Below are positions 11,416 to 46,100 of a stretch of 64,000 nucleotides of DNA, one piece after another (the stretch's first letter is position 1; each line of letters opens with the position of its first letter). The DNA comes from Vulcanimicrobiota bacterium (lineage in GTDB: Bacteria; Vulcanimicrobiota; Vulcanimicrobiia; Vulcanimicrobiales; Vulcanimicrobiaceae). The stretch is taken from the NCBI GenBank assembly GCA_963777315.1, contig CAVZQC010000003.1:32001-96000 (forward strand), in the 5' to 3' direction. The position numbers were made by a program, and so were the translations under genes. Under the pieces are notes generated by a model. That model worked only from the letters and a program-made list of their open reading frames with translations. It searched no databases and was not told the origin of the DNA.

Positions 11416-11589
11416 ATGTCAACCGACGCGAAGCAGGCACTAGACGAACACGCGCGTTCTATCGATTCGCTGCATCAACAGTTGGCCGCCATGCCGGGCG
11501 CGGACAAAGAACGTTTGAAAGAAGTCGTCGGCAAATACAAGGCGGCCCACAAGCAGTTTGAAGACGACGCGCTCGGGTGTATGAACTAA
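11416..11589 (+). CDS. Small helical hypothetical protein (57 aa)
   Basis: GGAG RBS; amphipathic helical sequence MSTDAKQALDEH...DALGCMN. Confidence 0.65.
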   Translation: MSTDAKQALDEHARSIDSLHQQLAAMPGADKERLKEVVGKYKAAHKQFEDDALGCMN

Positions 11590-13085
11590 CCGCGCAGCAG
11601 TTCCTCGAGCGCGATCCCATCGGGACAGCCTAGTCCCGTGCACGGGTTCCATCCCGCTTGCGCGTTGTAGACTCCATTACTCCCGCCAACCACCTCCCGC
11701 ATGGGTTGTGGATTCGAACCATAGAGCAGCGGCGCGAAAAAGCCGATAGGTTTCGAAAGCCGTTCGTTCAGCCGTGCAGCAAGCGCCGCCCACATCGGTG
11801 CGACTGCGCTCGTTCCCCCTGCGGCTAATTCCGTGCCGTTGAGATATACCAAATATCCCGGCGATTCTTGTGCTGCAACGTCGGGCACACCCCGTCCCGG
11901 CGTCACCCGCAGCGCAGCCGCAACTTCTCGTGCACGATCTTGCCACGCGGGCAGTGGAAAATGCTCGCTGAATCCGCCGCCCGTGTGCTCCCATGCAACC
12001 TCAGCGCCCCCGGATTGAATTTGCGTCGCTCCGGCGGCGTGCGCGAAGGGTGCCGATGCAGGCGCAACGACGTGCGGCTTTCCATCGAGCTGCAGTTCGG
12101 CGCCATGATCTCCTGAAGAGCAAATAACGGTTATGCCGAGTAATGCCGCCGCCGCGAACAAGTCGTTTAAAATATCGAGTGCGCAAGGGGTCCACAGCGG
12201 CTCTGGCCATCCGTAACTGACGGATATAATCGAGGGGCGCATCTCCTCGTCGAAAACCGCGGCGCGCAGCGCGTCTAGGAGGCCGCGCTCGTCGTCGGGC
12301 GCCTGATACAGCACGATGCGCGCATCGGGTGCGAGCGCTGCGGCAATTTGCACGTCCAGCGCCGCCTCCAAGTCTTTGACCGTTTCTATCTCGTGGACCA
12401 GGCTCGCGTTGTCGAGGCGTTTCACCTGCGGCTGCTGCGTCGTAAGTGACTGTGCCTGCATGCATTGGGCGAAATCATCCTCGCGAAACTCGCCGCGCAA
12501 TTGCAGGATAGCGATGGTTTGGCCACGCCCGGTGGCCTGGGGAAAGCGGTAGCGTTCCGCTATTTCGGCCGCGCGAAGCGGCGATTCGCGGCGTTGCAAA
12601 GCGCCCAACCTCTGCGAACGCGGCCACTGGTGAAACCCGAACACGCCCCGCAGTAACGCCGCGATTTCCGCCGGCGCATGCAACGCGCCGTCGCGATGGC
12701 GGAAACGGTATCCGCTGGAATCCTCGAACGTCGCGACGGAAGCTCCGAACGCTTCGATGGAACGATCCAACGGTGCGCGCAAGACCAAGCAACGCCAGTG
12801 CTGTTCGAGGACTTCAATGCGGTGACGAGTGCAGTATGCCCGAAATTCATCGATGGCGCTATCGTCGGCCGCGCTTGCCTTAACCAGGGCCGCGCGTTCT
12901 GCATACGTTCGCGCGCCGATGGAAGTGTGGCCGATCTCGTACGCTCGGCTCACATCCACCGCGTTCTGCGCGTGGGGCTGCAGCCAGGCCGTCAGTAAGA
13001 CCTCGTTCTCCGCTCGAACGTCTCCTACGCGCGTACTCGCCGGCCACTGTGTGCGTTTCGTTCCTGGAATGGCAACGCTCGTCAT
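11586..13085 (-). CDS. Sedolisin/kumamolisin-like S53 peptidase with prodomain
   Basis: EAALD (ExxxD), SSGD, RGVPDVA, GGTS and GWNPCTGLG motifs. Confidence 0.92.
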   Translation of the reverse strand: MTSVAIPGTKRTQWPASTRVGDVRAENEVLLTAWLQPHAQNAVDVSRAYEIGHTSIGARTYAERAALVKASAADDSAIDEFRAYCTRHRIEVLEQHWRCLVLRAPLDRSIEAFGASVATFEDSSGYRFRHRDGALHAPAEIAALLRGVFGFHQWPRSQRLGALQRRESPLRAAEIAERYRFPQATGRGQTIAILQLRGEFREDDFAQCMQAQSLTTQQPQVKRLDNASLVHEIETVKDLEAALDVQIAAALAPDARIVLYQAPDDERGLLDALRAAVFDEEMRPSIISVSYGWPEPLWTPCALDILNDLFAAAALLGITVICSSGDHGAELQLDGKPHVVAPASAPFAHAAGATQIQSGGAEVAWEHTGGGFSEHFPLPAWQDRAREVAAALRVTPGRGVPDVAAQESPGYLVYLNGTELAAGGTSAVAPMWAALAARLNERLSKPIGFFAPLLYGSNPQPMREVVGGSNGVYNAQAGWNPCTGLGCPDGIALEELLRG

Positions 13086-13171
13086 GCGTGGCAGATTGGA
13101 CAAGGGTGAAACGGAACCCGCCGGCCGGCGCGTTCGGCGGAGGGAAGCAACCCCAGCACGAAGCAGGTCGT

Positions 13172-15970
13172 ATGGGGATGCAGGCTGAGGCCGAAAACAC
13201 GGTCTCCGTTCTCCCTACCGGTACGGTGACGTTTTTGTTTTCGGATATCGAAGGCAGCACCGTGCGGTGGGAAAGCGCGCCCGATGCAATGGCGCTTGCG
13301 TTAGCGCGCCATGACGCGATGATGCGCGAGCTCATCGAAGCGCACGGCGGATACGTGTTTAAAACGATCGGAGATGCTTTCTGCGCGGCCTTCGCAAGTA
13401 CGCCTGAAGCGACCGCCGCCGCCCTTGACGCCCAGCGCGCCCTTATCGCCGAAGATTTTTCGCACGTCGACGGACTGCGCGTGCGCATGGCACTGCATTC
13501 GGGAACTTGCGGCGAGCGCGGCGGCGACTACTTCGGTCCCACCGTCAATCGGGTTGCGAGGTTGCTCGCAATCGGTCATGGCGGTCAGGTGCTGCTCTCG
13601 CGTGCCTGCGCGGAGCTCCTACGCGGTGACACGCCGCAATACGCTCTGCGCGATCTCGGCAGCCACCGGCTCAAGGACCTCTCCCAACCGGAATACGTCT
13701 ATCAGCTGATGGCGCCGGAATTGCCCGACGCGTTTCCGGAGTTGCTCTCGCTCGATCATCTGTCAAACAATTTGCCGGCTCAATTAACGTCGTTCGTCGG
13801 ACGCGAGGAGGTGATGGGTGAGATTAAGGCGCTGCTCGCGCATAACCGGCTCGTGACGCTCGTCGGAACGGGCGGTGCGGGCAAGACGCGTTGTGCGATT
13901 CAGGTCGGCGCAGAATTGCTCGACGGTTCGGGCGACGGCGTATGGTTAGCCGAACTGGCGCCGATCTCCGACGCCTCGCTCGTCACGAGTGCCATTGCGC
14001 GCGCATTGAACGTACAAGCATCGCCGAACCGCCCGATACTGGATACGCTGATCGGTTATCTCAAGCGTAAACGGCTGCTGCTGATTCTTGACAACTGCGA
14101 ACACGTCATCGACGAAGCGCGAACCGTCGCGAGCGCAATACTGCGGGCTTCTCCCGAGGTGCGTATTCTCGTAACGAGCCGTGAGGCGTTGAATATTGCG
14201 GGCGAACGGCTCTATCGCATGCCTTCGCTTGCCGTGCCGCCTACAACGCAGGCGCTATCGCCGCAGGACATCCTCGGATTCGGTGCCTCATTGCTTTTTA
14301 GCGACCGAGCCTTGTCCGTGACCGATCGATTTACGTTGACGGATGAGAACGTCTCGCATGTCGCGGAGATCTGCCGGAGACTCGATGGGATTCCACTGGC
14401 CATTGAACTGGCGGCCGCACGGGTGAAAGTGCTCTCGCCCAAGCACATCGCGCAGATGCTCGACGAGCGCTTCCGTTTGCTGACCGGCGGCGATCGCAAT
14501 GCGCTGCCGCGCCAGCAGACCATGCGCGCCCTGATCGATTGGAGCTACGATCTGCTCACGGACGACGAACGAGCGCTTTTCCGCAAACTCTCGATCTTCG
14601 CCGGCGGCTTCACGCTGGAGGCCGCCGCGATCGTATGCACCGGGAGCGAGATGGATGAAATCGCCATGCTGGATCCGCTTTCGTCGCTCGTAGACAAGTC
14701 GCTCCTGCAAGCCGAGCAAGTTGAAAGTGGGACGCGGTACCGATTCTTGGAATCCACGCGGCAATATGCCCGCGAGCGTCTCGCCGAGCATGGAGAGCAT
14801 GCAGCGGTTGCACAGGCGCATGCAACCGCATTTCTGACCCTTGCTGAAAAGCTGGGGCGAAGTTGGGAGACGACGTCCGATCGGGAGTGGTTCGCCCAGT
14901 TGGAGCCGGAGCTGGAAAACTTCCGCGCAGCGTTGAGCTGGTCGCTCGGCGCGCGAGGCGATGTTTTGCTTGGGCAGCGGCTGGCGGGGGCGTTGCATCA
15001 AGCGTGGTGGTCGCTGGCGACGGCAGAGGGGCGCAGGTGGGTGCAGATGGCGCGCGATCTTACCAACGACCAGACGCCCCGGCCGGTGATGGCCGTACTC
15101 GATCTCACGGAAGCCGAGCTCGCCGCGTCGCTCGTACAATATACGGCAAGCCGTACGGCGTGTGAACGTGCTCTGGGGCACTACAGTGCGATTGGCGATG
15201 CCATGGGAATTGCGTACGCGCAGCGATGTCTGGCCCTCGCGCTGATCTTTCTGGGAAAGATCGAAGAGGGTGAGGCGCTGCTGGGGCCGGCCCTATCGCA
15301 AGCTCGAGCGCTGGGAGCGCGAAGACTGACGGGAGTCGTGCTGCAGACGCTAGCGGACGCGCGTCATTCGGTCGGTGACGTCAGCGAAGCTCGACGCCTG
15401 CACGCCGAAGCATTGGCCAACCTTCGAGCCGTCGGCGCGGAACGCACGGCCGCAAACGTCTGTGTAAATCTCGGCGAAGCGGAGTTTCACGGCGGAAACG
15501 CAGACGAAGCGCTTCGATGGGCAAGTGAGGCGCTCGCTACCCACCGGTCGTTCAACGCCACGCGCGGTATCGCGTTTGCGCAGATCAACATGACGGCATA
15601 TTTGACGGCGCTCGAACGGTACGATGAAGCGCGCCTTTGCGCGCGCGCGGCGATCGGCGCGGCACGCGACGCGCAACTCCAAGTAGGTACGGCATGGGCG
15701 CTGCAGCATCTTGCGGCAACGGTTGTGCTGCGCCCGGCAGATCCCAAGCAGGCGCGTGACGAACGGCGTTGCGGGACGCGTCTTTTGGGCTACGCCGATG
15801 CGCGCCTGACTGAACTGGAATCGTTGCGTGAATTCACCGAGCAGCAGGAGTACGAAAAAATGCTTGCCGCATTAGGCGCGGCGTTAGATGCGGATGAAGT
15901 TGCAAAGCTCATGCGGGAAGGCAGCCTCTGGAGCGAAGATCAAGCCGTCGCCGAGGCGATGCTCATTTAA
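13172..15970 (+). CDS. Class III adenylate cyclase + STAND/NB-ARC-like ATPase + TPR protein
   Basis: FSDIEGST, KTIGDAF, DYFGPTVNRVAR; Walker A GTGGAGKT; LDNCEH; LDGIPLAIELAA; helical C-terminal repeats. Confidence 0.9.
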   Translation: MGMQAEAENTVSVLPTGTVTFLFSDIEGSTVRWESAPDAMALALARHDAMMRELIEAHGGYVFKTIGDAFCAAFASTPEATAAALDAQRALIAEDFSHVDGLRVRMALHSGTCGERGGDYFGPTVNRVARLLAIGHGGQVLLSRACAELLRGDTPQYALRDLGSHRLKDLSQPEYVYQLMAPELPDAFPELLSLDHLSNNLPAQLTSFVGREEVMGEIKALLAHNRLVTLVGTGGAGKTRCAIQVGAELLDGSGDGVWLAELAPISDASLVTSAIARALNVQASPNRPILDTLIGYLKRKRLLLILDNCEHVIDEARTVASAILRASPEVRILVTSREALNIAGERLYRMPSLAVPPTTQALSPQDILGFGASLLFSDRALSVTDRFTLTDENVSHVAEICRRLDGIPLAIELAAARVKVLSPKHIAQMLDERFRLLTGGDRNALPRQQTMRALIDWSYDLLTDDERALFRKLSIFAGGFTLEAAAIVCTGSEMDEIAMLDPLSSLVDKSLLQAEQVESGTRYRFLESTRQYARERLAEHGEHAAVAQAHATAFLTLAEKLGRSWETTSDREWFAQLEPELENFRAALSWSLGARGDVLLGQRLAGALHQAWWSLATAEGRRWVQMARDLTNDQTPRPVMAVLDLTEAELAASLVQYTASRTACERALGHYSAIGDAMGIAYAQRCLALALIFLGKIEEGEALLGPALSQARALGARRLTGVVLQTLADARHSVGDVSEARRLHAEALANLRAVGAERTAANVCVNLGEAEFHGGNADEALRWASEALATHRSFNATRGIAFAQINMTAYLTALERYDEARLCARAAIGAARDAQLQVGTAWALQHLAATVVLRPADPKQARDERRCGTRLLGYADARLTELESLREFTEQQEYEKMLAALGAALDADEVAKLMREGSLWSEDQAVAEAMLI

Positions 15971-17309: not shown

Positions 17310-18818
17310 TCAAACGATTTTGACGCGAAATTTTGCAACCACTTTGCCGTTGACCGGCAGCGAGCCGCCGCTATAGGTAAAGGTAACCGTTCCGCCGGAC
17401 TGAGCGGGCGCGCACGAGAGCGGCCCGGGCGTGGTCACGCAGGTTGCGCTCGCCGCCACGTATGCCGTGTATTGCGGGATGGGGTCGCTGATGGAAAACG
17501 ACTGCAGCGCGAACGCGCGGTGATTGGTAAACGTCAGCGTGTATTCCAGTACGTCGCCGGGCAGTCCATTCACCGTATTTCCCGGCCCGAGGGACTCGGT
17601 GATGTTCGCGACCTGTTTGACGAGATTCGCCGCGGTAAACGTCGTCGTGACCGCGTTCGAAGAAAGTGTTTGCCCACCGTACTCCGAGGGGTCGAACGGA
17701 ACGCTTCCCTGCGCGGTATTGACGGCGCTGCCGCTCGAGGAGCTCGTCGAGCCGACCACGTGCAGCGTCGCCGTAGCGCCCGCGCTCAAGTTTGAAGCGG
17801 TTGCAACGACGGTTTGAGCGCTGGCAGCCGACGTTACGGCGCAAGTGCCGGCGCCGCCGGTCACCGCGCATGATGGCGGTGTGATAGACGAGATTGTGAT
17901 GCTCGCAGGGATCGGGTCGGTCAGCGAGGCGCTCGCGGCGGCGAAATATCCCGTGTTCTTGAGCGCGACGTCGTAGAAGAGTGAATCGCCCGGACCGGCA
18001 GCGCCGGTGCCCGCCTTCGCGATCGTGAATGTGGCCGGTACGGATGCGAGATCGTTGACCACGTCGCTTCCGGTCGCAATCGCGGTGTGGCTGCCGACAA
18101 GCGCGCCTGCGGTGGTGTATTCCCACAGCGTCCAAGGAGAACCGCTGCCGATTTGCTCGCAGGCGGCCAGGTCGCCGTTGGGCAAAAGCGCCGCGCCCGT
18201 AAGGCTTCCGCTGGGCCCACTGAGCGTTACGGGACCGGTGACTGCGCCGGTCGTTGCGTTGATCGTGTACAGACTGTGCGTCGCAACGACGTAAAGCGTT
18301 TCGTTGTTGGCTGCAGTCGGAGCGGCGACGATGTCGCCGTTGGTACCGATCGACGTGCTCAGCGTAAGCGTCTTTTGAACCGCGGCCGTGGATGGGTTTA
18401 CCCAGGCGACGGTGTTTGCGCTGGTCATCGTCACGAGGCATCCCGCAGCGCAATACTTCGTCGTAGGATCGAACGACATGCGCGCCTCCGTACCGGACAA
18501 ACCGGAGATCGATCCCACGATCGTTGCGGCACCATAGGCCGTTGCCGACGTCGGCGCGTTCGGATTGAAAGCCGCCTTGACCAGCTGCCCGGAAGCATTC
18601 GAAACGTACAGATTGCCGCTCAAGTCCTGCGCCAGATCCTGGGCGCTGGTTCCCGAAAAAATACTCCCGTACGATTGAACGACGGAGCCCGACGTGGTGT
18701 CGATGAGATAGACGCCGGCGCTGTCGCTGAGCACCATGATGGTTGCCGCGCGTCCGGCAGCCATCGCACCGATCCATCCCAGCACGGCCAGCGCCGCCGC
18801 AAGAAGATAGCGGCGCAT
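17310..18818 (-). CDS. Secreted protein: beta-propeller-like N-terminus + DUF11 domain + C-terminal incomplete DUF11 (putative tip adhesin)
   Basis: Signal peptide; LYxI/VD-type blade repeats; IAK..GPGDSLFYDVALKNTG and LVK..LPGDVLEYTLTFTN..ISDPIP; ends VAKFRVKIV. Confidence 0.75.
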   Translation of the reverse strand: MRRYLLAAALAVLGWIGAMAAGRAATIMVLSDSAGVYLIDTTSGSVVQSYGSIFSGTSAQDLAQDLSGNLYVSNASGQLVKAAFNPNAPTSATAYGAATIVGSISGLSGTEARMSFDPTTKYCAAGCLVTMTSANTVAWVNPSTAAVQKTLTLSTSIGTNGDIVAAPTAANNETLYVVATHSLYTINATTGAVTGPVTLSGPSGSLTGAALLPNGDLAACEQIGSGSPWTLWEYTTAGALVGSHTAIATGSDVVNDLASVPATFTIAKAGTGAAGPGDSLFYDVALKNTGYFAAASASLTDPIPASITISSITPPSCAVTGGAGTCAVTSAASAQTVVATASNLSAGATATLHVVGSTSSSSGSAVNTAQGSVPFDPSEYGGQTLSSNAVTTTFTAANLVKQVANITESLGPGNTVNGLPGDVLEYTLTFTNHRAFALQSFSISDPIPQYTAYVAASATCVTTPGPLSCAPAQSGGTVTFTYSGGSLPVNGKVVAKFRVKIV

Positions 18819-21800
18819 CTACCGGCTTGCCCCCCAGCCGAAGATGCGATCGATGAGGGTTGTGAACGTGAAATAGAATCCCTTGCGTTGCGGCTTTCCG
18901 CTCAACGTCGGATCGATGCTCCCGGAAAAATTGTATCCGGCTGCCAGACGCGCGTCGTTGCCGATTGTGTAACCCGCCTCGGCGGCCACGTCGGTCGTTT
19001 GCGCACCGGGAACGTTGGCCGCATTCAACATCCGCAGCTCAGCGCCCACGTCGAACCGCGTTCCGACGTTTTGACGGGCCCGTAGTCCGAAAAGTGAGGT
19101 GTGGGCGGCGTAATAGCCGTCTCCGTCGAGTTTCTCGGCCACTCTTCCAGCCAGTTCGAACGTATTCCATGGCCGGTACACTTCTTCGAAGGAAAGCACG
19201 TCGGTGCGCTCGGGCAGCAAGGACGAAGTTCCGGTGAGGCGCTCATAGCCGAGCAACGATACCAAGGTGTCGTTGTTCTGCGGACGATAGGCGAGCGAGA
19301 TGCGGTCGTCGGCGGCGTTCGTGCCGCTTCCGGAAACCTGATTGAGCGTTCCGAGCACCGCAATATTCGGTCCGACGTGGCCGGTAAGACCTCCGCTGAA
19401 CGTGGTTCCTCCCAGCGACCCGGTACGCGACTGATATGCCAGGGCCGCGCGAAAATCTTTGGAATCGGAATAGGCAACCGAGCCGCCGTAGACGGTAAAT
19501 CCTGCGGCGCCCGCGCCGGACGCGTTCGCCTGCTGCATCGTGAGGTTTCCACTGAGCCGTTTACCGATGCTGAATTTTTGCGTGACGCCGAGCGCGGAGT
19601 AGATGTCAGTAGCGTTTCCGGTATCCGTAATCAGATAATCGCTCTCAACGTTCATGGCCGGGCTCATCGCGCGTTCGAAGCCGATTTGCGTCGAACGCGT
19701 TCCAAGGTTCGTCAATCCGAGCGCGCCTGCAGATTGCGCGAACGCCGTTGCAGCAGAATCGCTGAGCAGTTGCCGCACGAACACTTTGCTGCGGTCGTCG
19801 AACGCATAACTCAATTCAGCGGAGGTTTGTGCCGGCTGCGTGGTCTGCGCGGTTGCTCCGGTCAGATCCTGATCGCGCTGAACGTTCAAGCCGACGCGCT
19901 TGCTCGGTTTCCAGTCGAAGCCGAGCTGAGCTTGCATTTGCGTGGAGCGTTGCAGCACATTCGGCTCAGGGGAGCTGCCCGTGAGCGGCGGCGATATGGT
20001 CAGTGGAACGTTTTGCTGCGCGTGCGCCTGGACGCCGAACAGCAGCGAAATCGTTTTGTTCACCGCTGTATTCCACAGCAGGCTCGCGTTGTTTTGCGCG
20101 TCTTCAACGCCCGCTCCATGATTGCGCTGGCCATCGGCTTCGAGCGTCAACGTCTGGCCGGGCGCTGCATGACGAGACCACGCAACGCGATAATTGGTAA
20201 AGCCCGGCGAGGATATCCCGCCGAACGGGTCGGCGAAACCGGCTGCGGTGTCTTGATACAGCGCGTCGATTTGATTGGGGCCAATGCGGTCGTTCAAGGT
20301 GAGATCGATCGCGTTGCCGCCGCCCCCGCTCGAAAGTTGACCCCCCGTAACGCCGGGCGCCGACCCCGAACTCGACGCGTGTGAAAGTATCCACTGGCCG
20401 CCCGGAAGCTTTCCGGTTAATGATTGCGAGACCAAGGAGAAGTTCGATGCTCCGGTGGCATCGTTGACGTAGGAAACGCGCAGTTTGGCTGCCGCTGAGC
20501 CGCCGATATCGACCCATGCGTTGCCTCCGGTTACTGCCGAATGCGTGGCGATTCCTTGATACTGATACTGCAGCTGCAGCACCTGAGGATTGAAATAGGG
20601 GTCGAACGGCAGCGGAACGTTGATGAAACGCAGCGTTCCGGTTGCATAATCTATCGTGTAATCGACGTTTCGAATCAACGGCGTTTGCGAGATGACGGCG
20701 CCGGTTCGCCGGTCTATCGACGCAAGGGTGATGTAATCGGATCCGACGACGATGTCGGGCTGCAGCGGCTGCGCAAGCGTCAAAAGGCCGCTCACGGGAA
20801 TGGTCGTCGAGACGTACGCCACTTGATTGCGCGCCGTGAACGCGTTCACATGAATGTGAGAATCCTTGTTCGCCAACTCGACTTTTGCACCCGAGAGCAA
20901 CTGTCGATACGCGCCAACCGCGTTGTCATCGCCGGCGGTTGCTTGAAATTGTCCCCACATGATACTGTCGCGTCCGCTGTCGAGGCGTGCGTACAACCGA
21001 TCGTTGGACTCAAAATCGGAAGATCGCGTCGAGGAATCTCCATAGGTTTGATACGGGCGTTCGTTCGGATCGTCCACGAAGGGACCATACGAAGAGAGCG
21101 GGGCAAGCGTGTTCTGCGACTCGTACGCAACGGTCAGCAGAGACTGTTTGCCGACGCGGCCGCTGGCAAACAGTGCAGCGCGTGCCCGGCGCGCGCTGCC
21201 GCCGTCGTCTACGCCATCGCCGTCGACCGCAATCGGCACGGCTCCGGCGCCTACGCTGACCAGTCCGTTGACCAGCGGTTTACGCAGATAGGGCGCGACG
21301 TACAGCGTTTGTGCAGACGTGAGTTCGCCCGCCGCGATTTGCAGCGTGATGTCGCCGGCCGTCAGCCCGGGAACGATGGGAATGCCGACATGCCCTCCGA
21401 GGCCGAGCTGCGCGGTGAAAACCGCGTTTTCGCTGCCGGGCGAGGCTGTGGGCGCCGGCGACGCGCCGGTGGTCGCCGACGGTAAGCCGGCGGATGCAAA
21501 GCGCGCATCGCCGCGCATGAGCGTGACCTTCACTGGGACTCCCGCCATCGCGGGATCCCCCCAGCGGTCCGTCGCGGAAACATCGAGCAATACGGCGCTT
21601 CGGCCGTCGGCCACGAGCGTGCCTTGCAACTGGGTGCGCAGCGTTGCGGGAGGCCCGCAACCGTAGATTAACGCCGTTGCCGAAGCTCCGCGCAACCCTG
21701 CTGCGCCTATCGGGGTGGCGACGAGCTCATTTGGGCCGGGCTTGAGGACGACGCCGAAATATTCGAACTGCGCCGTTCCCCCTTTGGCCGAAGCGGTACG

Positions 21801-22148
21801 GCGTCCGATGCGGGTAAGCGGCACGAGTTCGCCGTTCACGCGCAGCTCCACGCCGGCGCCGTACACCGTGTCGACGACGACTCGCGTTGCAACTGAAGGC
21901 GATACCGTTTTGTCGGACGGAAAAGCGAACGATGCCGTCAGCGGGCCGGTCGCGGTGTACGATTCATGCGCAAGATCCGCGTACTTGATCGAATTCGGCG
22001 ACTCGGACGGTGCCGGGCTCGGGCTGGAGATCGGCGCGGCAACGTCGTCGCCGGTGGCCCCCGATCGCGTCGCCGCCGCGCAGATCAACGAAATGGCAAT
22101 CATCATGGCGCCGATTCGGCGAAGCGCATGTGCGATGGCGATTGTCAT
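18819..22148 (-). CDS. Large outer-membrane beta-barrel protein with N-terminal Ig-like domains
   Basis: Signal peptide, Ig-like region (LKPGPNELVA), YQTYGDSS, DYTIDYATGTL and a long C-terminal run of amphipathic strands. ATGA overlap with the upstream gene. Confidence 0.75.
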   Translation of the reverse strand: MTIAIAHALRRIGAMMIAISLICAAATRSGATGDDVAAPISSPSPAPSESPNSIKYADLAHESYTATGPLTASFAFPSDKTVSPSVATRVVVDTVYGAGVELRVNGELVPLTRIGRRTASAKGGTAQFEYFGVVLKPGPNELVATPIGAAGLRGASATALIYGCGPPATLRTQLQGTLVADGRSAVLLDVSATDRWGDPAMAGVPVKVTLMRGDARFASAGLPSATTGASPAPTASPGSENAVFTAQLGLGGHVGIPIVPGLTAGDITLQIAAGELTSAQTLYVAPYLRKPLVNGLVSVGAGAVPIAVDGDGVDDGGSARRARAALFASGRVGKQSLLTVAYESQNTLAPLSSYGPFVDDPNERPYQTYGDSSTRSSDFESNDRLYARLDSGRDSIMWGQFQATAGDDNAVGAYRQLLSGAKVELANKDSHIHVNAFTARNQVAYVSTTIPVSGLLTLAQPLQPDIVVGSDYITLASIDRRTGAVISQTPLIRNVDYTIDYATGTLRFINVPLPFDPYFNPQVLQLQYQYQGIATHSAVTGGNAWVDIGGSAAAKLRVSYVNDATGASNFSLVSQSLTGKLPGGQWILSHASSSGSAPGVTGGQLSSGGGGNAIDLTLNDRIGPNQIDALYQDTAAGFADPFGGISSPGFTNYRVAWSRHAAPGQTLTLEADGQRNHGAGVEDAQNNASLLWNTAVNKTISLLFGVQAHAQQNVPLTISPPLTGSSPEPNVLQRSTQMQAQLGFDWKPSKRVGLNVQRDQDLTGATAQTTQPAQTSAELSYAFDDRSKVFVRQLLSDSAATAFAQSAGALGLTNLGTRSTQIGFERAMSPAMNVESDYLITDTGNATDIYSALGVTQKFSIGKRLSGNLTMQQANASGAGAAGFTVYGGSVAYSDSKDFRAALAYQSRTGSLGGTTFSGGLTGHVGPNIAVLGTLNQVSGSGTNAADDRISLAYRPQNNDTLVSLLGYERLTGTSSLLPERTDVLSFEEVYRPWNTFELAGRVAEKLDGDGYYAAHTSLFGLRARQNVGTRFDVGAELRMLNAANVPGAQTTDVAAEAGYTIGNDARLAAGYNFSGSIDPTLSGKPQRKGFYFTFTTLIDRIFGWGASR

Positions 22149-24316
22149 CGTGTATCCTGCAGAGCGAAGTTGACGTCTTCCATGAGGCCGTCGTCGAAGA
22201 GTCCGTGCACCAAACGCTGCATCGACCACGTGCTGTTCATGCGCGCGTTCGAGAAGGGACGAACGGTCTGCGGAATCGTCGCCGGATCCACGCGTAGCAC
22301 GTGCATCCCGGGCCTCACGGCCGCGAACGAGTAGCGTCCGTTCTGATCCGTAAGGACGGAGCTCCCGTCCTCCAGAAAGATACGCACGCCCGCAATGCCC
22401 TCATCGCCTGTGCTGAACCGTCCGGTGCGATGCACGTCCAGAAACACGCGGCCCGTGATCACGCCGCGCTGCGAGAACGCTCCGGCGACCACGCGTACGT
22501 CGGCAGTTGCGCCGGCCGTCGCCGAAACGGCGGTTCCCGGAATCTTCGCTGAAGCGGTCACCGTGTTGACGAGCGTCGTTCCGGCCACCGCTGATGGAAA
22601 AACGAGGGCGGCGTAGACGATGTCGTGCGTCGTCGAGGGAGGTAACGCCGGAACGTTCCAGGTCAGAACGCGCCCGTTTACCGAAGGTTCCAGCGGCGTT
22701 GAGTCCATGCGCGCCGTGCCGGGTGCGTACGATTCGCCCGGCGGAAGCACGTCCGCTACTTGCGTTTCACCGAGTCCGGATTGCGATGGATTCCCGAATT
22801 GGATCGTGTAGATCAGCCGATCTCCGGGCTGCGCGACCGGCTTATCCACCGCTTTGCTCACCGAGATCGATCGCGCGGTGAACAGCGGGACGTTTCCGAA
22901 CAATCCGAACACGTTGGCAAGCGTTACGTTGGCGGAAGTCAGCACAAAACCACCTGCTTGCGCCAGCGGCTGACCGTCCAGCGACGAAGCCGTGACGTCG
23001 TACAGCATCTTGCCGGCATCGAGTTTTATAATCAGACCGATCTTGCGGTTCATGAATCCCGGAGCGGTAATCGTCAGGAAAAACTGCGATCCCCCGGGCG
23101 CAATCATGCTCGGCGCGACCGCGAAGGAATACGCGCCGTTCGCGCCGGTGGTGAACGGATTCTGCGTGTTCGCCGTATCGACGGGCGGCACGCCGCTCAT
23201 ATTCACCGGTTTACCGTTTGCATCCAATAGCGTGACGACTGCTGCGCCCACCGGGCGATCGGCATTTGAAGGATCGAAAACGAGGTTTGCAGTCCCGATC
23301 AGCACGCTCGCAGGCGTCGTATTGGTGGCGGATACGCCGTCGGCCGCCACTTGCGCAACGTTGGTGAAGGTCGCACCGGTCGTCGAATTGGCCAGAACCG
23401 AGGCAGTAAAGGAGACGTCGAACGTCGCCCCGGCCGCAACCGAAGGAATGCGGACCGACAGCGTCCGACCGGAAAGCGTCGCAGCCGAACCCGCCGGCGA
23501 CCCGTCGAGCAGCACCGACGAAAGATTCGCTTGCAATCCGGCCGGAACAACATCGGTGACCACCACGTTCGTCGCTGCCGCTTCGCCCGAGTTCTTCGCG
23601 CGAATGTCGAACGTGACGTCGGCGCCGGGGTTGGACTGTACGATCAGCTGCTGATCGACCGTTTTCGATATCTGCGTCGCAGGGCCGCCGATCCCGGTGA
23701 ATTGCGGACCTTGCGCTGCCAAGGCCCATTGCATGCCGGTGTCGCTTTGCAATCCGTTGGAGGTACCTGCGACCGTGGTTTGCGCCGTAATGGAAAGCGG
23801 AAACGCCGTTCTAAGCGCGATGCCGCCCGTTGAAACGACGATCTGCAACTCAATGGAGTCACCCGGCGGGACGCTGGGCGAAACCGTCGATCCAATCGTC
23901 GCGGGATACGATGCGCCGCCTGCGACGAACGCCGCGGAGAGCAGCTTACCGGGACCGGTGCTTGCGGTCTGGATCGTGTACGCGTCGGTGACGTTGCTGA
24001 CGTTCGTGATTGTGAACGCGCGCGTCACGTTCGATCCGGCGGCGTAGGCGTCGGTCGCCGGATCGACTTTCGATTCCTTCGGCGTGACGGTGAGCGCTCC
24101 GACCGGCGCGTACGTTGTAATCACCGGGTTCGAATCGGCAACATAACTCTGCCCCGAACCGTCTTCATATGTGGCGGTCGCGGTGTTCTGCACTTTGGAG
24201 CCTGCCGGAGTCGCGGTAATCATCGGCCTGAAAGGCGCCGCCTGCAGCAGTCCCGGTGCGAGCGCAGCCAGCGCGAACACGGGGAGAATCTGCCGAACAA
24301 CGCGTGCGATGTTCAC
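22145..24316 (-). CDS. Secreted multi-DUF11 protein with C-terminal SdrD-B/CnaB-like domain (putative base subunit)
   Basis: Signal peptide; [83 protein letters not shown]. Confidence 0.8.
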
Positions 24317-24340
24317 GCCGGATGCGCTAAACGCTTCCCG

Positions 24341-26674
24341 TTATTTCGCGATCACCGCGAAGTACAGGATGCCGCCGACCTGTGGCGTCAGCACGAACGT
24401 ACCGCCGCCGACTTGATCCATGAACGCGTTGGATGCGACCGCGTTGCCGTTGTCGTTGGGCGTGCTGGATCCGCCGACGACCGCGTACGTCGAGCCCGTG
24501 GTGTTGTCGCCGCAGGTTCCCGCAACGTTGCCGCACTGATTGGTTACCGCAGCACCCGAGGTGAGCGCTTCCTTCAATCCACCCGAATACGTGGCCCAGG
24601 TATTCGTGCCGGCGCCGCCGTCTTCGGTGATTTTTAGCGTTCCCGCGACCATCGCGAGGGCAACGTTTCCTGCTCCACTGACCGTGCTTACCGGAAGCGT
24701 ATTGAGATAGGCGACTTTGTATTGGATTACGCCGGCCGGACAAACGCCGTTCGCCGGAACGGAAGCACCCGCGGGACACCCGGTTGAGAGCACGGTTGCG
24801 GTTTTTTGCAGCGAGATGAAGCCGCCCGGCATGAGCACGTGATAGGTCGAGTTACTGTACGATCCGGATGCTTGTGAGGTCGCGAGCACCTGAACGTATA
24901 TTGGATTGAAGTCCGTCGGCGCGTTTGCTCCGCTTGCGCTGCTGTATTTCACGCAGTACGGCGCGGTCGCGCTCGCCGAAACGGAGATCTGATAGTTGCC
25001 TGAGCCGTCTTTGGTAGCCAGATTCGTGCAGTTATAGTCCGTGTACACGCCGGTCACCGTGACGGCCGCCGGCAGGCTCGGAAACGTAAAGGAGTACGTG
25101 TCGTTGCCGCTCGACGTATTCTGAAGATCGCCTGGAACGTTGAGCACCGTGCCGCCGGGGAGCTGGGCGCCGAACGTGCCGTTGGATCCCAGACTCGCTT
25201 GCGTGAAATCGGTGTTGGTAGTGTTGCTGCCGCAGGTCGCGGTGTTGTAGCAGCCGGAAGCGCCGGCGGCGCCTTTCGGGCCGTTGAGCACACCGGGAAC
25301 GTTGCTGGTCGTAGTATTCGACAGGCCGTTGGCCGCAGGATTTCCGCTCGCGGCATTATACGCGGTCGATGGATCGGCGGTACCGTTATTGGGAACCGTT
25401 CCCGGCGCGATGCCCGGACCTTCTACAAAGCCCGCGTTGTCCGCGTATGCCGTGACCGCGACGTTCTTGATCGCATTTCCGGGCGGCAAGTTGGTGAGCG
25501 TGAGCGTAAACTCCAGTTCCGCTTGCGCGTTGCTGACGTTGCCTGCACTCGACCCCGACGACCCGACCGGAATCGCCCCGGTACCGGTGATGTAAACACC
25601 CACAAAGTACGCGGTGCCGGCGGATGGAGCGGTGGTCGTCCAGCCGGATTTTCCCGTGTTGTCCGTGGTGTAGACGATCGTTGCGGTGTCGCCCGCGATG
25701 CTGATGTTCTTGGTGATGCTGGCGCTCGAAACGGTAAGCGGCACGCCGCCGTTTTGCGGAATCTTGTCGGTGACCAGGATGCCGTTGTTGGTTGCGCTGA
25801 GCGCCGAGCCGGTAATCGTCGTACCGCTTTGGCGAATCGACTGCAGCAACTGCGCGGGCGCAGCGCCGCCGTTGTTCACGTCGATCGTGTAGGTGAGGGT
25901 ATTGCCCGAAACGACGCCGGCGGTTTTCTGCAAATCCAAGCGTGCGTCGGCGACGACCGTATCGCCGTACGTGTTCGATACCGCATTGGACGTCGAAGCG
26001 CCGTAATTCGAACCGGTCCCCGGATAAGTGATCGTCGCACCGGCAACCGTAGTGCCCACGGTGCCGGATCCCGCCGTTGTGACTTTATATTGAATCGCCA
26101 CGTTGATGAACGCGCCTGCTGGCAGGCCGTAGACGTTCGTGTTTGCGGCCGTCGAAAGATACGTATTGGCTGCGGCGACCGTCGCGAACGTATGCGGCAC
26201 GCCGTCCGTACCGGTGACGATGACGTTTTGGAACGTACCGGGTCCGCTGACCGTCGACGTGCCGGCGCCGAGCTGAAAGTAGCCGCTGGAATTTCCGGTG
26301 TTCGTCAGCGTGTAAATGTCGTTGATGACGTTGCCGTACACAATGGGACCGGCCGGCACGTTTTGATTTTGCGTGGTCGAACCCGGCGCAGTTCCGTTGT
26401 TCGTCGTGATCACCAGCGAAGGCGCGTTCTGGACGAACGTCTGGACTTGATTGGACGTCGAGCTGTAGGTGTTCGTGCCGTCGCTGTATGATGCGCTGGC
26501 GGTGTTGTTGATCGCGGTACCCGGCGCGGTGGAGGATGTCGGCGTTGGCATCGGCGTGTAGATTGGCGGCGGCGTGGCGGCAATGGCGGGTGAAACGCCG
26601 ATTCTCACCGCCGCAAGAGCCAGCCCACAGGCCAGAACGAAAAGCAGGGCCAGCAGGCCGCGCGAAGTCTTCAC
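24341..26674 (-). CDS. Secreted T/S/G/N-rich DUF11 protein (putative major fibre subunit)
   Basis: GAGG RBS + GTG; signal peptide; TAPGTAINNTASASY; LDLQK..LTYTIDVNNGG..VTDKIP; ISLQK..PAGVIQYKVAYLN; paired Cys; ends LYFAVIAK. Confidence 0.8.
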   Translation of the reverse strand: MKTSRGLLALLFVLACGLALAAVRIGVSPAIAATPPPIYTPMPTPTSSTAPGTAINNTASASYSDGTNTYSSTSNQVQTFVQNAPSLVITTNNGTAPGSTTQNQNVPAGPIVYGNVINDIYTLTNTGNSSGYFQLGAGTSTVSGPGTFQNVIVTGTDGVPHTFATVAAANTYLSTAANTNVYGLPAGAFINVAIQYKVTTAGSGTVGTTVAGATITYPGTGSNYGASTSNAVSNTYGDTVVADARLDLQKTAGVVSGNTLTYTIDVNNGGAAPAQLLQSIRQSGTTITGSALSATNNGILVTDKIPQNGGVPLTVSSASITKNISIAGDTATIVYTTDNTGKSGWTTTAPSAGTAYFVGVYITGTGAIPVGSSGSSAGNVSNAQAELEFTLTLTNLPPGNAIKNVAVTAYADNAGFVEGPGIAPGTVPNNGTADPSTAYNAASGNPAANGLSNTTTSNVPGVLNGPKGAAGASGCYNTATCGSNTTNTDFTQASLGSNGTFGAQLPGGTVLNVPGDLQNTSSGNDTYSFTFPSLPAAVTVTGVYTDYNCTNLATKDGSGNYQISVSASATAPYCVKYSSASGANAPTDFNPIYVQVLATSQASGSYSNSTYHVLMPGGFISLQKTATVLSTGCPAGASVPANGVCPAGVIQYKVAYLNTLPVSTVSGAGNVALAMVAGTLKITEDGGAGTNTWATYSGGLKEALTSGAAVTNQCGNVAGTCGDNTTGSTYAVVGGSSTPNDNGNAVASNAFMDQVGGGTFVLTPQVGGILYFAVIAK

Positions 26675-26687
26675 TGATGTTCCTCGA

Positions 26688-27191
26688 TTACGGCTTTTTG
26701 GCGGCGGGATGTCCGTTGACGCGCACTTCATAGCTGAACGTCTGCGTCTTATGCGGTGCAAGTGCCCGTGGCGCGATCCAGCGCACGGCCTTGTACAACG
26801 CCGGGTCGGCGGCTTTCACGAGCGTTCTTCGCGGCGTCTTCACCGAAAAGGCCGGCCGGGCGGACCAGCTCTTCCCATCCAGCGTGTATTGGACGGCGGC
26901 ATCGTCGCCGCGCGCAGACTGCAGAACGTATGAAGTTGCTTGGGGGATGGGGCCGACCGGAACGAGTTTGAACGCGGGAGAGGTTCCTACGTTCGTCGCG
27001 ACGATCGTGTAGCGAACGAGATCGCCGGCCTTGAGCGTCAGCCCTTGCACGGGCGTTTGTTTGATTTGACCGTTGCTATGCTGCACAAGCACGCCGCTCA
27101 AATGCAGTTTCACCGCGGGTGCCGCCGCGGCTGCCGCCGAGCAGCACGCAAAAATCGCGCCCAACAGTAAAGGCGCGCGCAGAACTCTCAT
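26688..27191 (-). CDS. Small secreted protein with a single incomplete DUF11-like domain
   Basis: GGAGG RBS; signal peptide; KAGDLVRYTIVATNVG..GPIPQATSYV..YTLDGKSWS..AVRW..FSYEVRVN. Confidence 0.8.
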   Translation of the reverse strand: MRVLRAPLLLGAIFACCSAAAAAAPAVKLHLSGVLVQHSNGQIKQTPVQGLTLKAGDLVRYTIVATNVGTSPAFKLVPVGPIPQATSYVLQSARGDDAAVQYTLDGKSWSARPAFSVKTPRRTLVKAADPALYKAVRWIAPRALAPHKTQTFSYEVRVNGHPAAKKP

Positions 27192-27336: not shown

Positions 27337-27860
27337 TCACTTCAGCGCGTCGCCGTACTTACCCGAGAGGTTCTCATTTACTTGACCGGTTTCGCCGGCC
27401 CAGGGCTGCTTGGAGTCCTTCATGTCCGTCATCGTCGCAACCAAGGTATAGCGCGGGTTGATCCTCCTGGCGGCGGTTGGAATAAAACAGCACGATACGA
27501 TGCTGCAGCTTGAGATGAGCCGCTTGGACGACGATGCTCCGAAACGTCGTGATACGTGTAATGTCAGGTCTCCGAATGGACCCTCGATGTTCGTGGCGCT
27601 CTCCAATGCTTCGGATTTCAAGACGCGTTTAAACGCCGTGCCTCGCGTACGCGTAGCGATCATAATATGTTCTTCGTACGGAGCGCTTGCAACGGAAAAG
27701 CCGCGTATTGCCTTCGCTGTCGTTCTCAGGCGGAATTGGAAAGCGTGATGTCGATAAACTGCCCGGCCGTAAACGTCCAATCGGCCGGCTTTGAAATTCG
27801 AAAGCCATCGTGCCCTTAGCGGCTTGCTCGCCTTAAGCGGCGATATAAACGTCGGCCACC
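27337..27860 (-). pseudogene. Decayed ferredoxin-NADP+ reductase-like FAD/NAD oxidoreductase
   Basis: Fragments in alternating frames: GTMAFEF, FTAGQFIDITL, RGFSVASAP, TAFKRVL, IEGPFGDLTLH, ITTFRSIV, IVLFYSNRR, YTLVATMT. Internal deletions remove the AGGIG segment. Start is approximate. Confidence 0.8.
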
Positions 27861-31981: not shown

Positions 31982-32118
31982 TTGGTTCTTCGGGGGTTGC
32001 GGCCGCATTGAGTGAAGTCGATGCACTATAGAGCGGTCCCTCGATGGGGTTAAGGTGTTCGTGGAACGGGAATGGGCTCGAAAACGCTGCAGCGTCACGC
32101 ACCCGGAAAGGAGTTTGT

Positions 32119-43017: not shown

Positions 43018-43198
43018 CCACCGCTACGATTCGTCCGCATCGCACGATATAGAAGCGGAAAGGTCGCCCGCGATAAAGCGGGTAACACTACTCTAGCACC
43101 GTTGGTGGATGCGTGGAGGCGTCCGAAACACGGTCAGAACGCGGCCGCCGCCATCGACGTTGCTTTTTTCCCGGCCTGTTCTGTGGAGGGACGATCTT

Positions 43199-46100
43199 AT
43201 GGGTAGTCTGCGACGGCACGCCGCTGCGATGCGCGCCGTTTTTACGCTTCTCCTTTTATCGAGTTTCATTGCATCGTCGGCGGGCATGGCGCTGGCGAGC
43301 ACCGTCGGCGTAATTAGCGGAACGGTCACCGATACGGCGACGCACCAACCGTTATCCAACGTAAGGGTGACGGCGGCATCTCCGTCGGGATCATACAGAG
43401 CCACGACCGACGCGCACGGCTTTTATTCACTAACCGGCGTCTACGCCGACACGTATACCGTTTCGTTTCAACTTCCGGGATATCAACCAACGTCAACTCC
43501 GGGAGTCACGGCCTTCGCCGATCAGGCGATCACCTTGAACCAACAGCTGAACAAGTCACTGAAGGTGATTGCCACAGTTCGTTCGACCGGTGCGGGCAGC
43601 GCTTTCCATCCCTCGCAGACCGTCGACACGGTCAGCATCGGGTCCCAACAGATCCAACAGTTCCAGGGTACTTCGTTCAACTTTGATGAGGTCAACATCA
43701 TCTCGTCGTTGCCGGGCGCCGAACTGGACTCGTCAGGTTATCCGGTGATACACGGTGGCCGTGAATATGAGGAAGGCTTCGAATTCGAAGGCATTCCGTA
43801 CACGGATGCGTACTCGAACCAGTTCACCAACAGTTTAGCCGTCACCACGCAAGGCATAAGCTCGGTGCAGCTGACGCCCGGCGGCGGCGACATCACGCAG
43901 ACGTCCGGCGGGTTCGGTGCACTCAACGTGGTTGCCAAACGCGGCTCCTACCCCGCGTACGCGCAGTTCGGCCTGTCCGTAGGCGGGCCTGGGTTCGATC
44001 ACCGCGCCACGATCGATTATAGCTTCGCAACGCCGGATGGCCGGTTTTCGAACTATGCGTCGTTCGCCGGCGACAATCGCACCTACAATTACGGCAACAA
44101 CGGCTATCCCTACGCGCAGATCAGTCGTTTCTACAGCCGGCGTATGGACGCAGATCGCGAGTTTCAGGACAACTTCGTCTTCCGCTTCGGCAAAAACAAC
44201 CACGAGTCGATTCAGGCGTTCACCGACATCGCAATGCACAGCTTCTATGAGGGTGCGGGCGGTATGGGCGGGTTGTGTTATGCCAGCTGCGACTACGCGT
44301 ACCTGCACACATGGAACGGTCTGTTGAACCTAATCCCGCAGATTACACCAGGGCAGATTGCGGCAATCTCTCAATTGTATCCGGGGCAGAGCTCGACGTA
44401 CGAGTATCTTTCTTGTCCGGTGCCTTCCGGTTTGCCGCCGCCGGGGATCGCGCCCGGCACCGCATTCACGTGCGATGGCAGCAATCGCGCTCCATTTACC
44501 TACTGGCAACCGAATCAGGCGTTTAAACTGGAATACACCAACAATCTCAATGAATCGACGTTCTTGTCGGTCTTAGGATACCGCGTGAATTCGGTTACCA
44601 CGTTTGATGGCCCATCCGCCGAAGGCAGCATCAACAACGATATTTACATTGCCTCACAAGGCGGCATGACGAACGGCGTCACGGTTTCCTTGCAGAAGCA
44701 GCTCAGCAGCAAGAATCTGATGCAGGCCGGATTCGATATCAGCCATCTGCACCCAATCGATGCGTATCTGTCCGATTCGTTTTCCCTTTACGGGTCGTTG
44801 CTTGGTCTTCTGAACGGCTTCACGGAACAGTACTTCTTACCGTCGCAGTTCGTAAACCCGAACGATCCGAACTGTCAAAATCCTTTCTCGGCCGCAAATG
44901 GGTTCAACGCGACGGCCAGTGGTTGCGGATGGGCGTACCAAGGACCTTACGCAAATGCGACGCAGCTCAAGTTTCCACAATTCGATCAGGTTTCCACTGT
45001 CGACCGGCAAGACTACTCGGCATACGTAAGTGACAAGTGGACGCCCAACGACCGGCTCAACGTGCAGGCCGGCCTGCGGCTCGACATGGCGACGTACCGG
45101 CTTCCCGCGCCGAGTATCGATCCCACCTACTGCACGACCACGTACTTGCCCATAACTTGGGTCGCGCCGACCACGTTCAATGCAGCCGATGGTTGGAAGT
45201 GCAACGCGCAAGCCACGTTCTCGTTCGACAATAACGCGGTCAAACCGAAGGTGTTCGAGCCTCAACTCGGCATCAGCTACCGTCTGGGGGAAGACTCGTC
45301 GTTACGGTTGACGTACCGCAAGGCGGTGCAGTTCGTCCCAATCTCCGACGTTGACTTCGGTGAAATCGACGCCCCTGCATATCTGAAGCCCTGGGGCATG
45401 ATTCCGGCGTACGAACCGTTTGGGCCGGGTACGAGTAGCTGCGGAATACCGGGTACTGCGCAGCAACCCGCGTCGGGCCAAACGTCGCCGGCGAACCTCG
45501 CAGTTACCTGCCGGAACTTCGGTGAGCAACTGTTCTGGATCAATCAGAACTTCGACGGCATTGCTTATCAGACGGCACGGCCGACGACCTCCGACAACTA
45601 CGAGCTCACTTTCTCGCACCAATTTACTAAAGGCGCGCTCGACGGTGTGTCGTTCAGTCTCTCGCCGTGGTATCGTAAGCAGCACGACACGGTCGCTTCG
45701 GAGGCATCACCGCTCATCGGGTCCAACGGGCAACCGATCGTCGCAAACGGCACGATCCTCTTTGGACCTCCGGTTTTGACGAACGAAGGCCGCGAATTCG
45801 CAGACGGCATCGACTTCAACCTTACGCGTGAAGTTCCGTACGGCCTGAGCGCTCAACTTACGGCAACGTACATCAACGAGTTCTCCAGCGTGATACCGCT
45901 GAGCAGTTCGGAGGATTTTTATCCCACAATTCAGCCTGCCTCGATCGCGCTCGGGAACACCTATCGCGTCGGCTTCCTCTCGCCGTTCCAGAGCACGCTT
46001 GCGCTTTCGTACCGCACGCACAGCGGCTGGAGAATCAACCCGCGGTACACGTACAATATCGGCTACCCCACGGGGCTAGGATTGCTGACCGCCGCGTACG

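Follow-up and report, generated by a model that had tools for sequence, protein, structure and literature searches.

Chaperone-usher pili such as Fim and Pap are built with an N-terminal donor that completes the immunoglobulin-like (Ig) fold of the neighbouring subunit, an acceptor-only tip, shaft subunits with both ends, a donor-only terminator, and a periplasmic helper together with an outer-membrane barrel platform (PMC13721041). CLIPPER/DUF11 (PF01345) adhesins form an intramolecular isopeptide bond within one long chain; in the CLIPPER crystal structure 9IFR this bond links Lys715 to Asn806, with Asp748 as the presumed catalyst (PMC12617251, section 2.4). Clostridium perfringens BsaA, a member of the TasA family, combines donor-strand exchange with a subsequent autocatalytic intermolecular isopeptide bond (10.1101/2024.11.04.621531), and archaeal thread filaments follow the same exchange-then-isopeptide logic. 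Here we analyse a five-gene operon (genes A to E) from a Vulcanimicrobiota bacterium, located in a window of 64,000 nucleotides (the whole stretch analysed; positions 32,001 to 96,000 of contig CAVZQC010000003.1), in which a CLIPPER domain is split between subunits. Functionally the operon would resemble the chaperone-usher pili, with a lock of the BsaA type added. The comparison with published systems further draws on PMC11821415, PMC12397347, 10.1101/2025.08.19.671072, 10.64898/2026.06.08.730779, PMC4390845, PMC9705863 and 10.64898/2026.10.17.759780.

The genes lie in the window as follows:

26688..27191, minus strand: gene A, 167 amino acids (aa), ATG start behind GGAGG
24341..26674, minus strand: gene B, 777 aa, GTG start behind GAGG; proposed shaft subunit
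22145..24316, minus strand: gene C, 723 aa; proposed base subunit
18819..22148, minus strand: gene D, 1109 aa; barrel protein
17310..18818, minus strand: gene E, 502 aa; proposed tip

The open reading frame (ORF) coordinates agree with the tight coupling claimed in the first-pass annotation, with gaps of 13, 24, -4 (an ATGA overlap) and 0 base pairs. The signal peptides it assigned to all five proteins were recovered from the sequence pattern as a hydrophobic N-terminal stretch followed by an Ala-rich cleavage-like region; no membrane-like segment past the N terminus and no LPxTG motif was found in A to E. Its assignment of DUF11 to A, B, C and E held in part: Pfam and NCBIfam recover DUF11/TIGR01451 twice in C (along with a weak SdrD_B), twice in E, and weakly and in part in A, but B matches no family in either collection and is linked by its fold and by distant homologs that carry DUF7925. 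D has no family match in Pfam at E 0.1. The host genome is 89.9% complete and holds A to E as one copy.

A CLIPPER domain divided between subunits

The CnaA-like fold, with a triad made up of Lys in the first strand, Asp, and Asn in the penultimate strand, is complete in one domain of B (244-460), two of C and one of E. At the subunit termini the same triad is divided between chains, and the alignment places the residues of the split domains on those of the bond in 9IFR. The domain architecture of the three subunits is:

B: Ig-like domains at 83-243; 244-460, an intact CLIPPER domain (K250/D303/N404); 461-618; and 619-777, an incomplete CLIPPER domain
C: intact CLIPPER domains (K218/D255/N319 and K488/D522/N584); C-terminal SdrD_B-like domain; no acceptor
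E: signal peptide; probable beta-propeller, about 25-262; intact CLIPPER domain (K268/D301/N367); terminal incomplete CLIPPER domain; no donor hairpin

Domain boundaries were compared with a CLIPPER profile of 129 positions, for which 62 intact domains from C and from fused C-D proteins were used. The terminal domains of B and E break off at profile positions 91-96 (that of B at 92-96), at most about one residue short of the C-terminus. Of 241 internal domains, 231 extend to position 100, but none of the 85 terminal ones in B and E does. As judged from these alignments, A, B and E end where the final two CLIPPER strands would begin, and B and C start, right behind the signal peptide, with those two strands, including the isopeptide Asn:

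26429..26530, minus strand: donor hairpin of B, residues 49-82, with Asn57
24344..24820, minus strand: acceptor domain of B, residues 619-777, with Lys624 and the acid Glu684/Asp685
24092..24211, minus strand: donor hairpin of C, residues 36-75, with Asn44
17313..17633, minus strand: acceptor domain of E, residues about 396-502, with K401 and D445

Conservation of these elements is high. In the alignment of B homologs (A4), the hairpin residues I55, N57, A59, S74 and N75 occur in 42/42 rows, the acceptor Lys (K624) in 41/42 and an acidic residue at position 684 in 42/42. The donor Asn is present in 14/14 C proteins and in 47 of the 51 fused C-D proteins with a donor match; the match is absent in 10 of 61 fused proteins. 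In the E-class alignment Lys and Asp of the acceptor each occur in 41/43. No A protein carries a donor hairpin, and among 47 E-class proteins a single one does, as a partial match.

Since the DUF11 domain is split between subunits, the subunits are predicted to join by donor-hairpin complementation, which we regard as very likely. E has only an acceptor, C only a donor and B alone among the subunits has both; E is therefore the predicted tip, B the shaft and C the base, as the first-pass annotation had mapped them. This mapping, with A as accessory or chaperone, D as pore or anchor and an overall usher-like logic, fits the tests reported here. The mechanism itself had been missed: neither the split domain nor the nature of A as a non-locking acceptor had been recognised. 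The joints are probably sealed by an intermolecular isopeptide bond, a covalent Lys-Asn lock being likely, and it is quite likely that B forms a polymer of more than one copy.

Structure predictions agree with this architecture. The model of B (predicted local distance difference test, pLDDT, 75.6; predicted template modelling score, pTM, 0.59) consists of the hairpin and four Ig-like domains, the second of which (241-460) matches CLIPPER 9IFR with a Z of 8.9, a root-mean-square deviation (rmsd) of 2.5 and 119 aligned residues. The whole model resembles the Ig rods of antigen I/II and PrgB, and Foldseek returned no close match (best 0.30, the PrgB Ig rod). For C and E, phmmer against PDB sequences gave 0 matches. 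Of the propeller plus DUF11 claimed for E, two DUF11 domains stand and the propeller is a lead only, from an Atlas value of 0.92 to DUF4394/DUF6923 clusters. E-type genes vary widely (431-2680 aa) and carry propellers, SpaA or DUF7933 stalks.

In 61/61 fused C-D proteins the SdrD_B-like domain with which C ends stands directly ahead of the barrel module, and the same domain ends single-chain repeat adhesins that adjoin or are fused to D-type barrels. We infer from this arrangement that it is a docking domain for D.

The proposed cap protein A and the modelled barrel protein D

Protein A consists of a signal peptide and one CLIPPER-like domain that lacks the final two strands. Leu31 and Gly80 occupy the positions of the isopeptide Lys and Asp; among 73 rows the Lys position holds 59 Leu and 0 Lys (10 gapped), and Asp occurs at its position in 6/73. 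A aligns with the end of E at an hhalign probability of 97.4; the alignment of B with A is weak (23 columns, probability 47.6). A complex model of B47-243 with A24-160 scored 0.85, the best of three controls scoring 0.00, with at least 96% of contacts in agreement between runs and a partner pLDDT of at least 87. Among reference pairs, 116 of 157 solved ones attained the mark for this score, as did 2 of 215 mismatched ones; these counts apply roughly, as the alignments were made for this analysis. In the model A grips the hairpin of B (55-66 and 72-84), and Asn57 lies against Leu31 of A, with B60 facing Gly80, which is the register expected on the basis of 9IFR. The complex model supports binding, which would be non-covalent because Leu stands where Lys should be. 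It is likely that A serves as a reversible cap for the donor hairpin, one that is itself unable to lock and would prevent early locking.

The barrel protein D was modelled with a pLDDT of 77.6 and a pTM of 0.69 and comprises:

D: signal peptide; two Ig domains, about 65-288; beta-barrel, 292-1100; inserted domain, about 455-530

The barrel has about 38-40 strands, the count of long strands being 39-40, most of alternating polarity, and is read as closed because porins align to both of its ends at once (289-1102). That D combines Ig domains with a beta-barrel had been proposed from the sequence, and whether it models as a membrane barrel had been set beforehand as a test; the model gives two Ig domains and a closed barrel. 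In fold comparison the best Z, 14.1, was obtained with TamA (rmsd 7.4, 254 aligned). Foldseek gave no close match (best TMq 0.16), profile searches against PDB sequences matched only the Ig and CLIPPER parts, and the best Atlas neighbours are unnamed clusters; as modelled, the barrel is without a close solved relative. At E 0.001 the family takes in 1487 clusters, of which many match only in part.

Two candidate identities of D were set aside. The match to PapC (Z 10.3, rmsd 11.7, 314 aligned) is a generic barrel likeness because its Z lies below those of porins and TamA. As a relative of SprA, D offers only residues 488-510 (23 residues), which match TIGR04189 at E 0.009 and 13.2 bits against a cut-off of 200, and 2 of 28 homologs match; no SprA chain was among the rows listed from the sequence and fold searches of D. 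SprA/Sov of the type IX secretion system is likewise a very large barrel protein, and D has half the length of SprA (about 2300 aa). The SprA barrel has 36 strands.

D could be an anchor or display barrel for C, with B and E leaving the cell otherwise or diffusing through D in the capped state and polymerising outside on the hairpin of C in a TasA/BsaA- or curli-like manner. The lack of usher homology by sequence and the generic PapC match fit such an arrangement, and BsaA is reported to polymerise by donor-strand-and-lock without an usher (10.1101/2024.11.04.621531). On the other hand, the loci examined show no further secretion gene that accompanies the operon, apart from a gene with an OmpA domain in some of them, and the barrel appears bigger than an anchor requires. 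We consider this arrangement as a whole quite improbable, and moderately favour D as a conduit over D as an anchor only.

Conservation and related arrangements

Named close homologs of D belong to Eremiobacterota, and a homolog is present in 22 of 61 related genomes. Among 17 regions around D homologs, 14 hold B-C-D or A-B-C-D in order; of the other three, one ends at a contig edge and two (L046, L047) encode a shorter barrel without A to C. In a set of 251 genomes of the phylum, which includes the unpublished G222 and G028 as well as fragmented genomes and kin that are not independent of each other, strong matches were required for A (E <1e-23) and D (E <1e-30), and weaker ones were excluded as other Ig or DUF11 proteins. 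By these limits 51 genomes have A and 61 have D, while E-type genes were found in 21; D occurs in 50/51 genomes with A, and A and D both occur in 21/21 genomes with E. Judged by gene order and co-occurrence, the cluster is not a chance grouping.

Loci beyond the phylum were scanned with an alignment (A3) led by P0204 (E 2.6e-42 to D). In the best 80 of at least 638 confirmed stretches to P0204, the order A-B-barrel is present in 53, with C fused to D; in another five A is accompanied by a B that is broken or scores weakly, and the shortfall in the remaining 22 fits in number the 21 loci with less than 5 kb of upstream sequence. Records labelled Proteobacteria, Verrucomicrobiota, Desulfuromonadia, Acidobacteriota, Abditibacteriota, Gemmatimonas and Balneolaceae have the system, and Variovorax paradoxus (L125) is a carrier in culture. 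A cyanobacterial plasmid carries B-A-C-D and one further gene, and plasmids of Acinetobacter and Pacificitalea carry A, B and C-D. Co-occurrence across phyla had also been set beforehand as a test and was found in this form. The five-gene unit of the first-pass annotation has to be narrowed: as E is variable and sometimes unlinked, the conserved core comprises the four genes A, B, C and D, with C and D usually fused.

In one genome (G155) E lies 300 kb from the operon on the same contig, with no A-D gene in the surrounding 12 kb. Some genomes that have the A-D operon also carry an orphan tip gene of the E type at a great distance from it (L132:5478-6992; L133:6173-7666), which suggests that tips are supplied in trans. 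One locus (L045:182-8052) has the A-B pair duplicated upstream of C-D, and another (L035:2818-4983) has a 721-aa gene with a B-like acceptor end behind D; both may possibly provide alternative shaft or tip subunits.

A second arrangement places a D-type barrel beside, or fused to, a giant adhesin of intact CLIPPER/DUF7933 repeats, without A or B, at these loci:

L002:2700-14412
L004:5237-14415
L137:5724-12588
L138:7408-19001
L046:1-7844
P0191, barrel fused to an adhesin with 19 DUF11 repeats

These barrels often lack the first Ig domain, and the one from Devosia is annotated as 'TonB-dependent receptor'. A further D-family barrel of 867 aa (L136:8371-10974) has neither Ig domain and no CLIPPER neighbour detected. 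From these sequence comparisons it appears that the fibre operon arose by cutting a single-chain adhesin inside a CLIPPER domain.

The same loci bear on whether the operon encodes a polymer at all, because E, B and C might merely be a split giant adhesin: a roughly one-to-one rod with the same joints, displayed by D, in which B forms no long polymer. That D-family barrels adjoin or are fused to one long intact-repeat adhesin with the same SdrD_B-like end (L002, L004, L137, P0191) speaks for such a rod, as does the size of B (762-1080 aa in its homologs), classical pilins being smaller. An adaptor would, however, need both a donor and an acceptor with the full triad, as B has in nearly every homolog, only if the ends were mutually exclusive. 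Retention of a dedicated non-locking cap and the finding of E by the E-ortholog profile in only 21/51 genomes with A (divergent tips may escape) also argue against the one-to-one rod, which we consider unlikely.

In some loci a gene with an OmpA domain stands between the barrel and the tip gene (L051:13219-14436; L001:14374-15456) and is a possible peptidoglycan anchor for the barrel. It would also suit a chain that runs as a periplasmic strut from the outer-membrane barrel to the peptidoglycan, with no surface fibre. C is N-terminal to the barrel in the fusions, and in BamA/TamA-type proteins the domains in this position are periplasmic. The high variability of E-type genes, as would be expected of adhesive tips, and the patchy occurrence of the operon (strong D match in 61/251 genomes) are at odds with a strut, and CLIPPER domains are stalks of surface adhesins (PMC12617251); the strut has no more than a slight chance of being correct.

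Some observations concern possible relatives and the surroundings of the operon. Proteins in PMC9705863 and PMC12617251 (Table 1; Anabaena All3289, and UniProt Q8YS00 as the example of DUF7925) are candidates only that may be D and B, and Thermus thermophilus has a DUF7925 match below the cut-off. Tandem genes of 1081 and 1250 aa in the host genome (C2:445316-452644) encode several DUF11-like domains with no barrel close by. A short ORF upstream of A (window 27337-27780, minus strand) has no Pfam match and looks like a decayed flavin oxidoreductase gene. The AI-2E gene downstream of the operon was left out of the system because the other loci compared have no homolog of it. Window neighbours unconnected to the system are:

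13049-15970, plus strand: cyclase/NB-ARC/TPR protein
11586-13103, minus strand: subtilase-family protease
43109-46591, plus strand: TonB-dependent receptor

Promoter and terminator scans at the operon gave chance level only, and among the sequencing runs listed no RNA run holds the locus.

Comparison with described systems and proposed assembly

The operon shares with chaperone-usher pili the N-terminal donor, the tip/shaft/terminator scheme and the pairing of a periplasmic helper with a barrel; completion of an incomplete Ig fold by the N-terminal extension of a neighbour fits in sequence and in one model, in another fold. The parts differ. The donor is a two-strand CLIPPER hairpin, the shaft subunit has four domains, the joints are probably covalent, and the barrel has about 38-40 strands in the model instead of the 24 of an usher and is often fused to the base subunit. 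In contrast to PapD, a two-domain strand donor that fills the groove, A is a one-domain DUF11 relative that is predicted to accept strands and so, inversely, to shield the donor hairpin; the helper would cap the donor, not the groove. Neither PF00577 (usher) nor PF00345 (PapD-family chaperone) was found in the operon, and their only genome matches (C2:386243-387673 and at C2:385020) belong to a separate true chaperone-usher locus, C2:385020-387673, with PapD_N and Usher above the cut-off.

From the CLIPPER adhesins, whose fold and K/D/N triad it shares and of which B, C and E hold intact copies, the operon differs in splitting the terminal domain between genes; neither 'split' nor 'complementation' occurs in the main text on CLIPPER (PMC12617251). 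BsaA and the threads are found in monoderm bacteria or archaea, with single-domain subunits of other families and a SipW-type peptidase, and have neither an outer-membrane barrel nor a cap like A. No Pfam or NCBIfam match to TasA/camelysin or a SipW peptidase was found in A to E or the scanned flanking genes. The Enterococcus Elr (WxL) pilus and haloarchaeal tafi also join tip, shaft and terminator by donor-strand exchange outside the chaperone-usher pathway; their cells have no outer membrane, and anchoring is by sortase or to the membrane. They have no CLIPPER split, and the Elr chaperone donates a strand. The sortase and LPxTG signals of sortase-assembled pili are unmatched by operon and genome, as the first-pass annotation had stated for LPXTG, sortase and a PapD chaperone in the operon; sortase PF04203 had no match in the incomplete host genome in a search whose control was positive in 3/14. 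Type V pili of Bacteroidota use lipoprotein prepilins and a C-terminal donor strand released by a protease. Here the donor is N-terminal, and a lipobox-like pattern is nearly absent (0/68 B, 1/72 A, 2/42 E). By these comparisons the operon appears to belong to none of the chaperone-usher, sortase, type V, TasA/BsaA or SprA systems.

Three further candidates were dropped. For HesF/Alr0267 of Anabaena, considered as a known member, no DUF11 link was found in the papers listed on it; the Litorilinea grappling hook is a single 6596-aa chain with 49 DUF11 domains and no donor or operon match; and the Microcystis CT pilus has another fold. No description of a split-domain fibre operon was found in the open-access literature searched.

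We consider it probable that the product of the operon is a surface fibre, assembled through donor-hairpin exchange with a covalent lock and rooted in the D barrel. A to E would leave the cytoplasm by Sec, and the machinery that assembles beta-barrels (BAM), of which BamA is found in the host genome, would insert D into the outer membrane. In the periplasm A would hold the hairpin of B non-covalently and shield it, as the modelled binding suggests. At D, A would hand the hairpin over to an open end, either that of E or that of a further B, and Lys624 (B) or Lys401 (E) would then bond to Asn57, making the step one-way. The resulting order would be E-(B)n-C, the fibre being rooted in the barrel because the last domain of C docks on D (C and D are fused in most phyla). 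The size of the barrel could let folded Ig domains through. Growth might proceed at the base, with E first and C as terminator, or outward from C, with E capping last. The likely purpose is adhesion or aggregation with exchangeable tips.

Several points weigh against this proposal. Fibre, bond, expression and localisation are all predicted, and the B-B, E-B and B-C joints rest on acceptor homology to A. The A-B model itself may have passed owing to likeness to solved CnaA-type domains, because the pair rebuilds such a domain. The count of the donor Asn in the B class (68/68) is circular because the donor profile itself served to delimit that class, a problem that affects the counts from A4 and C-D less. 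The strand count comes from DSSP of one AF2 model with a pLDDT near 55-70 around residues 800-880, and the co-occurrence counts come from kin and fragmented genomes. The open groove of B and E has no evident protection ahead of assembly, and where C is fused to D the hairpin of C must end or start growth. Finally, D-family barrels also serve single-chain adhesins without A or B, so the barrel does not imply polymerisation.

Sequence and models together point to a real, widespread and apparently undescribed assembly system. More broadly, we lean narrowly towards a widespread undescribed diderm pilus and secretion pathway, in which barrels of about 40 strands, more than those of SprA, export and root either one giant CLIPPER adhesin or a locked polymer, an inverse chaperone caps the donor, and trans-encoded tips plug in via a tag/catcher-like joint. 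If true, the operon would represent a class of Gram-negative pilus whose parts come from none of the assembly pathways described so far. The isopeptide lock would contribute a one-way, energy-independent step of assembly, alongside an inverse-logic chaperone, and in the joint nature would offer a pair for covalent protein ligation. The operon would also give a role to a large family of barrels that lacks annotation and show a single-chain adhesin turning into a polymer by gene splitting.

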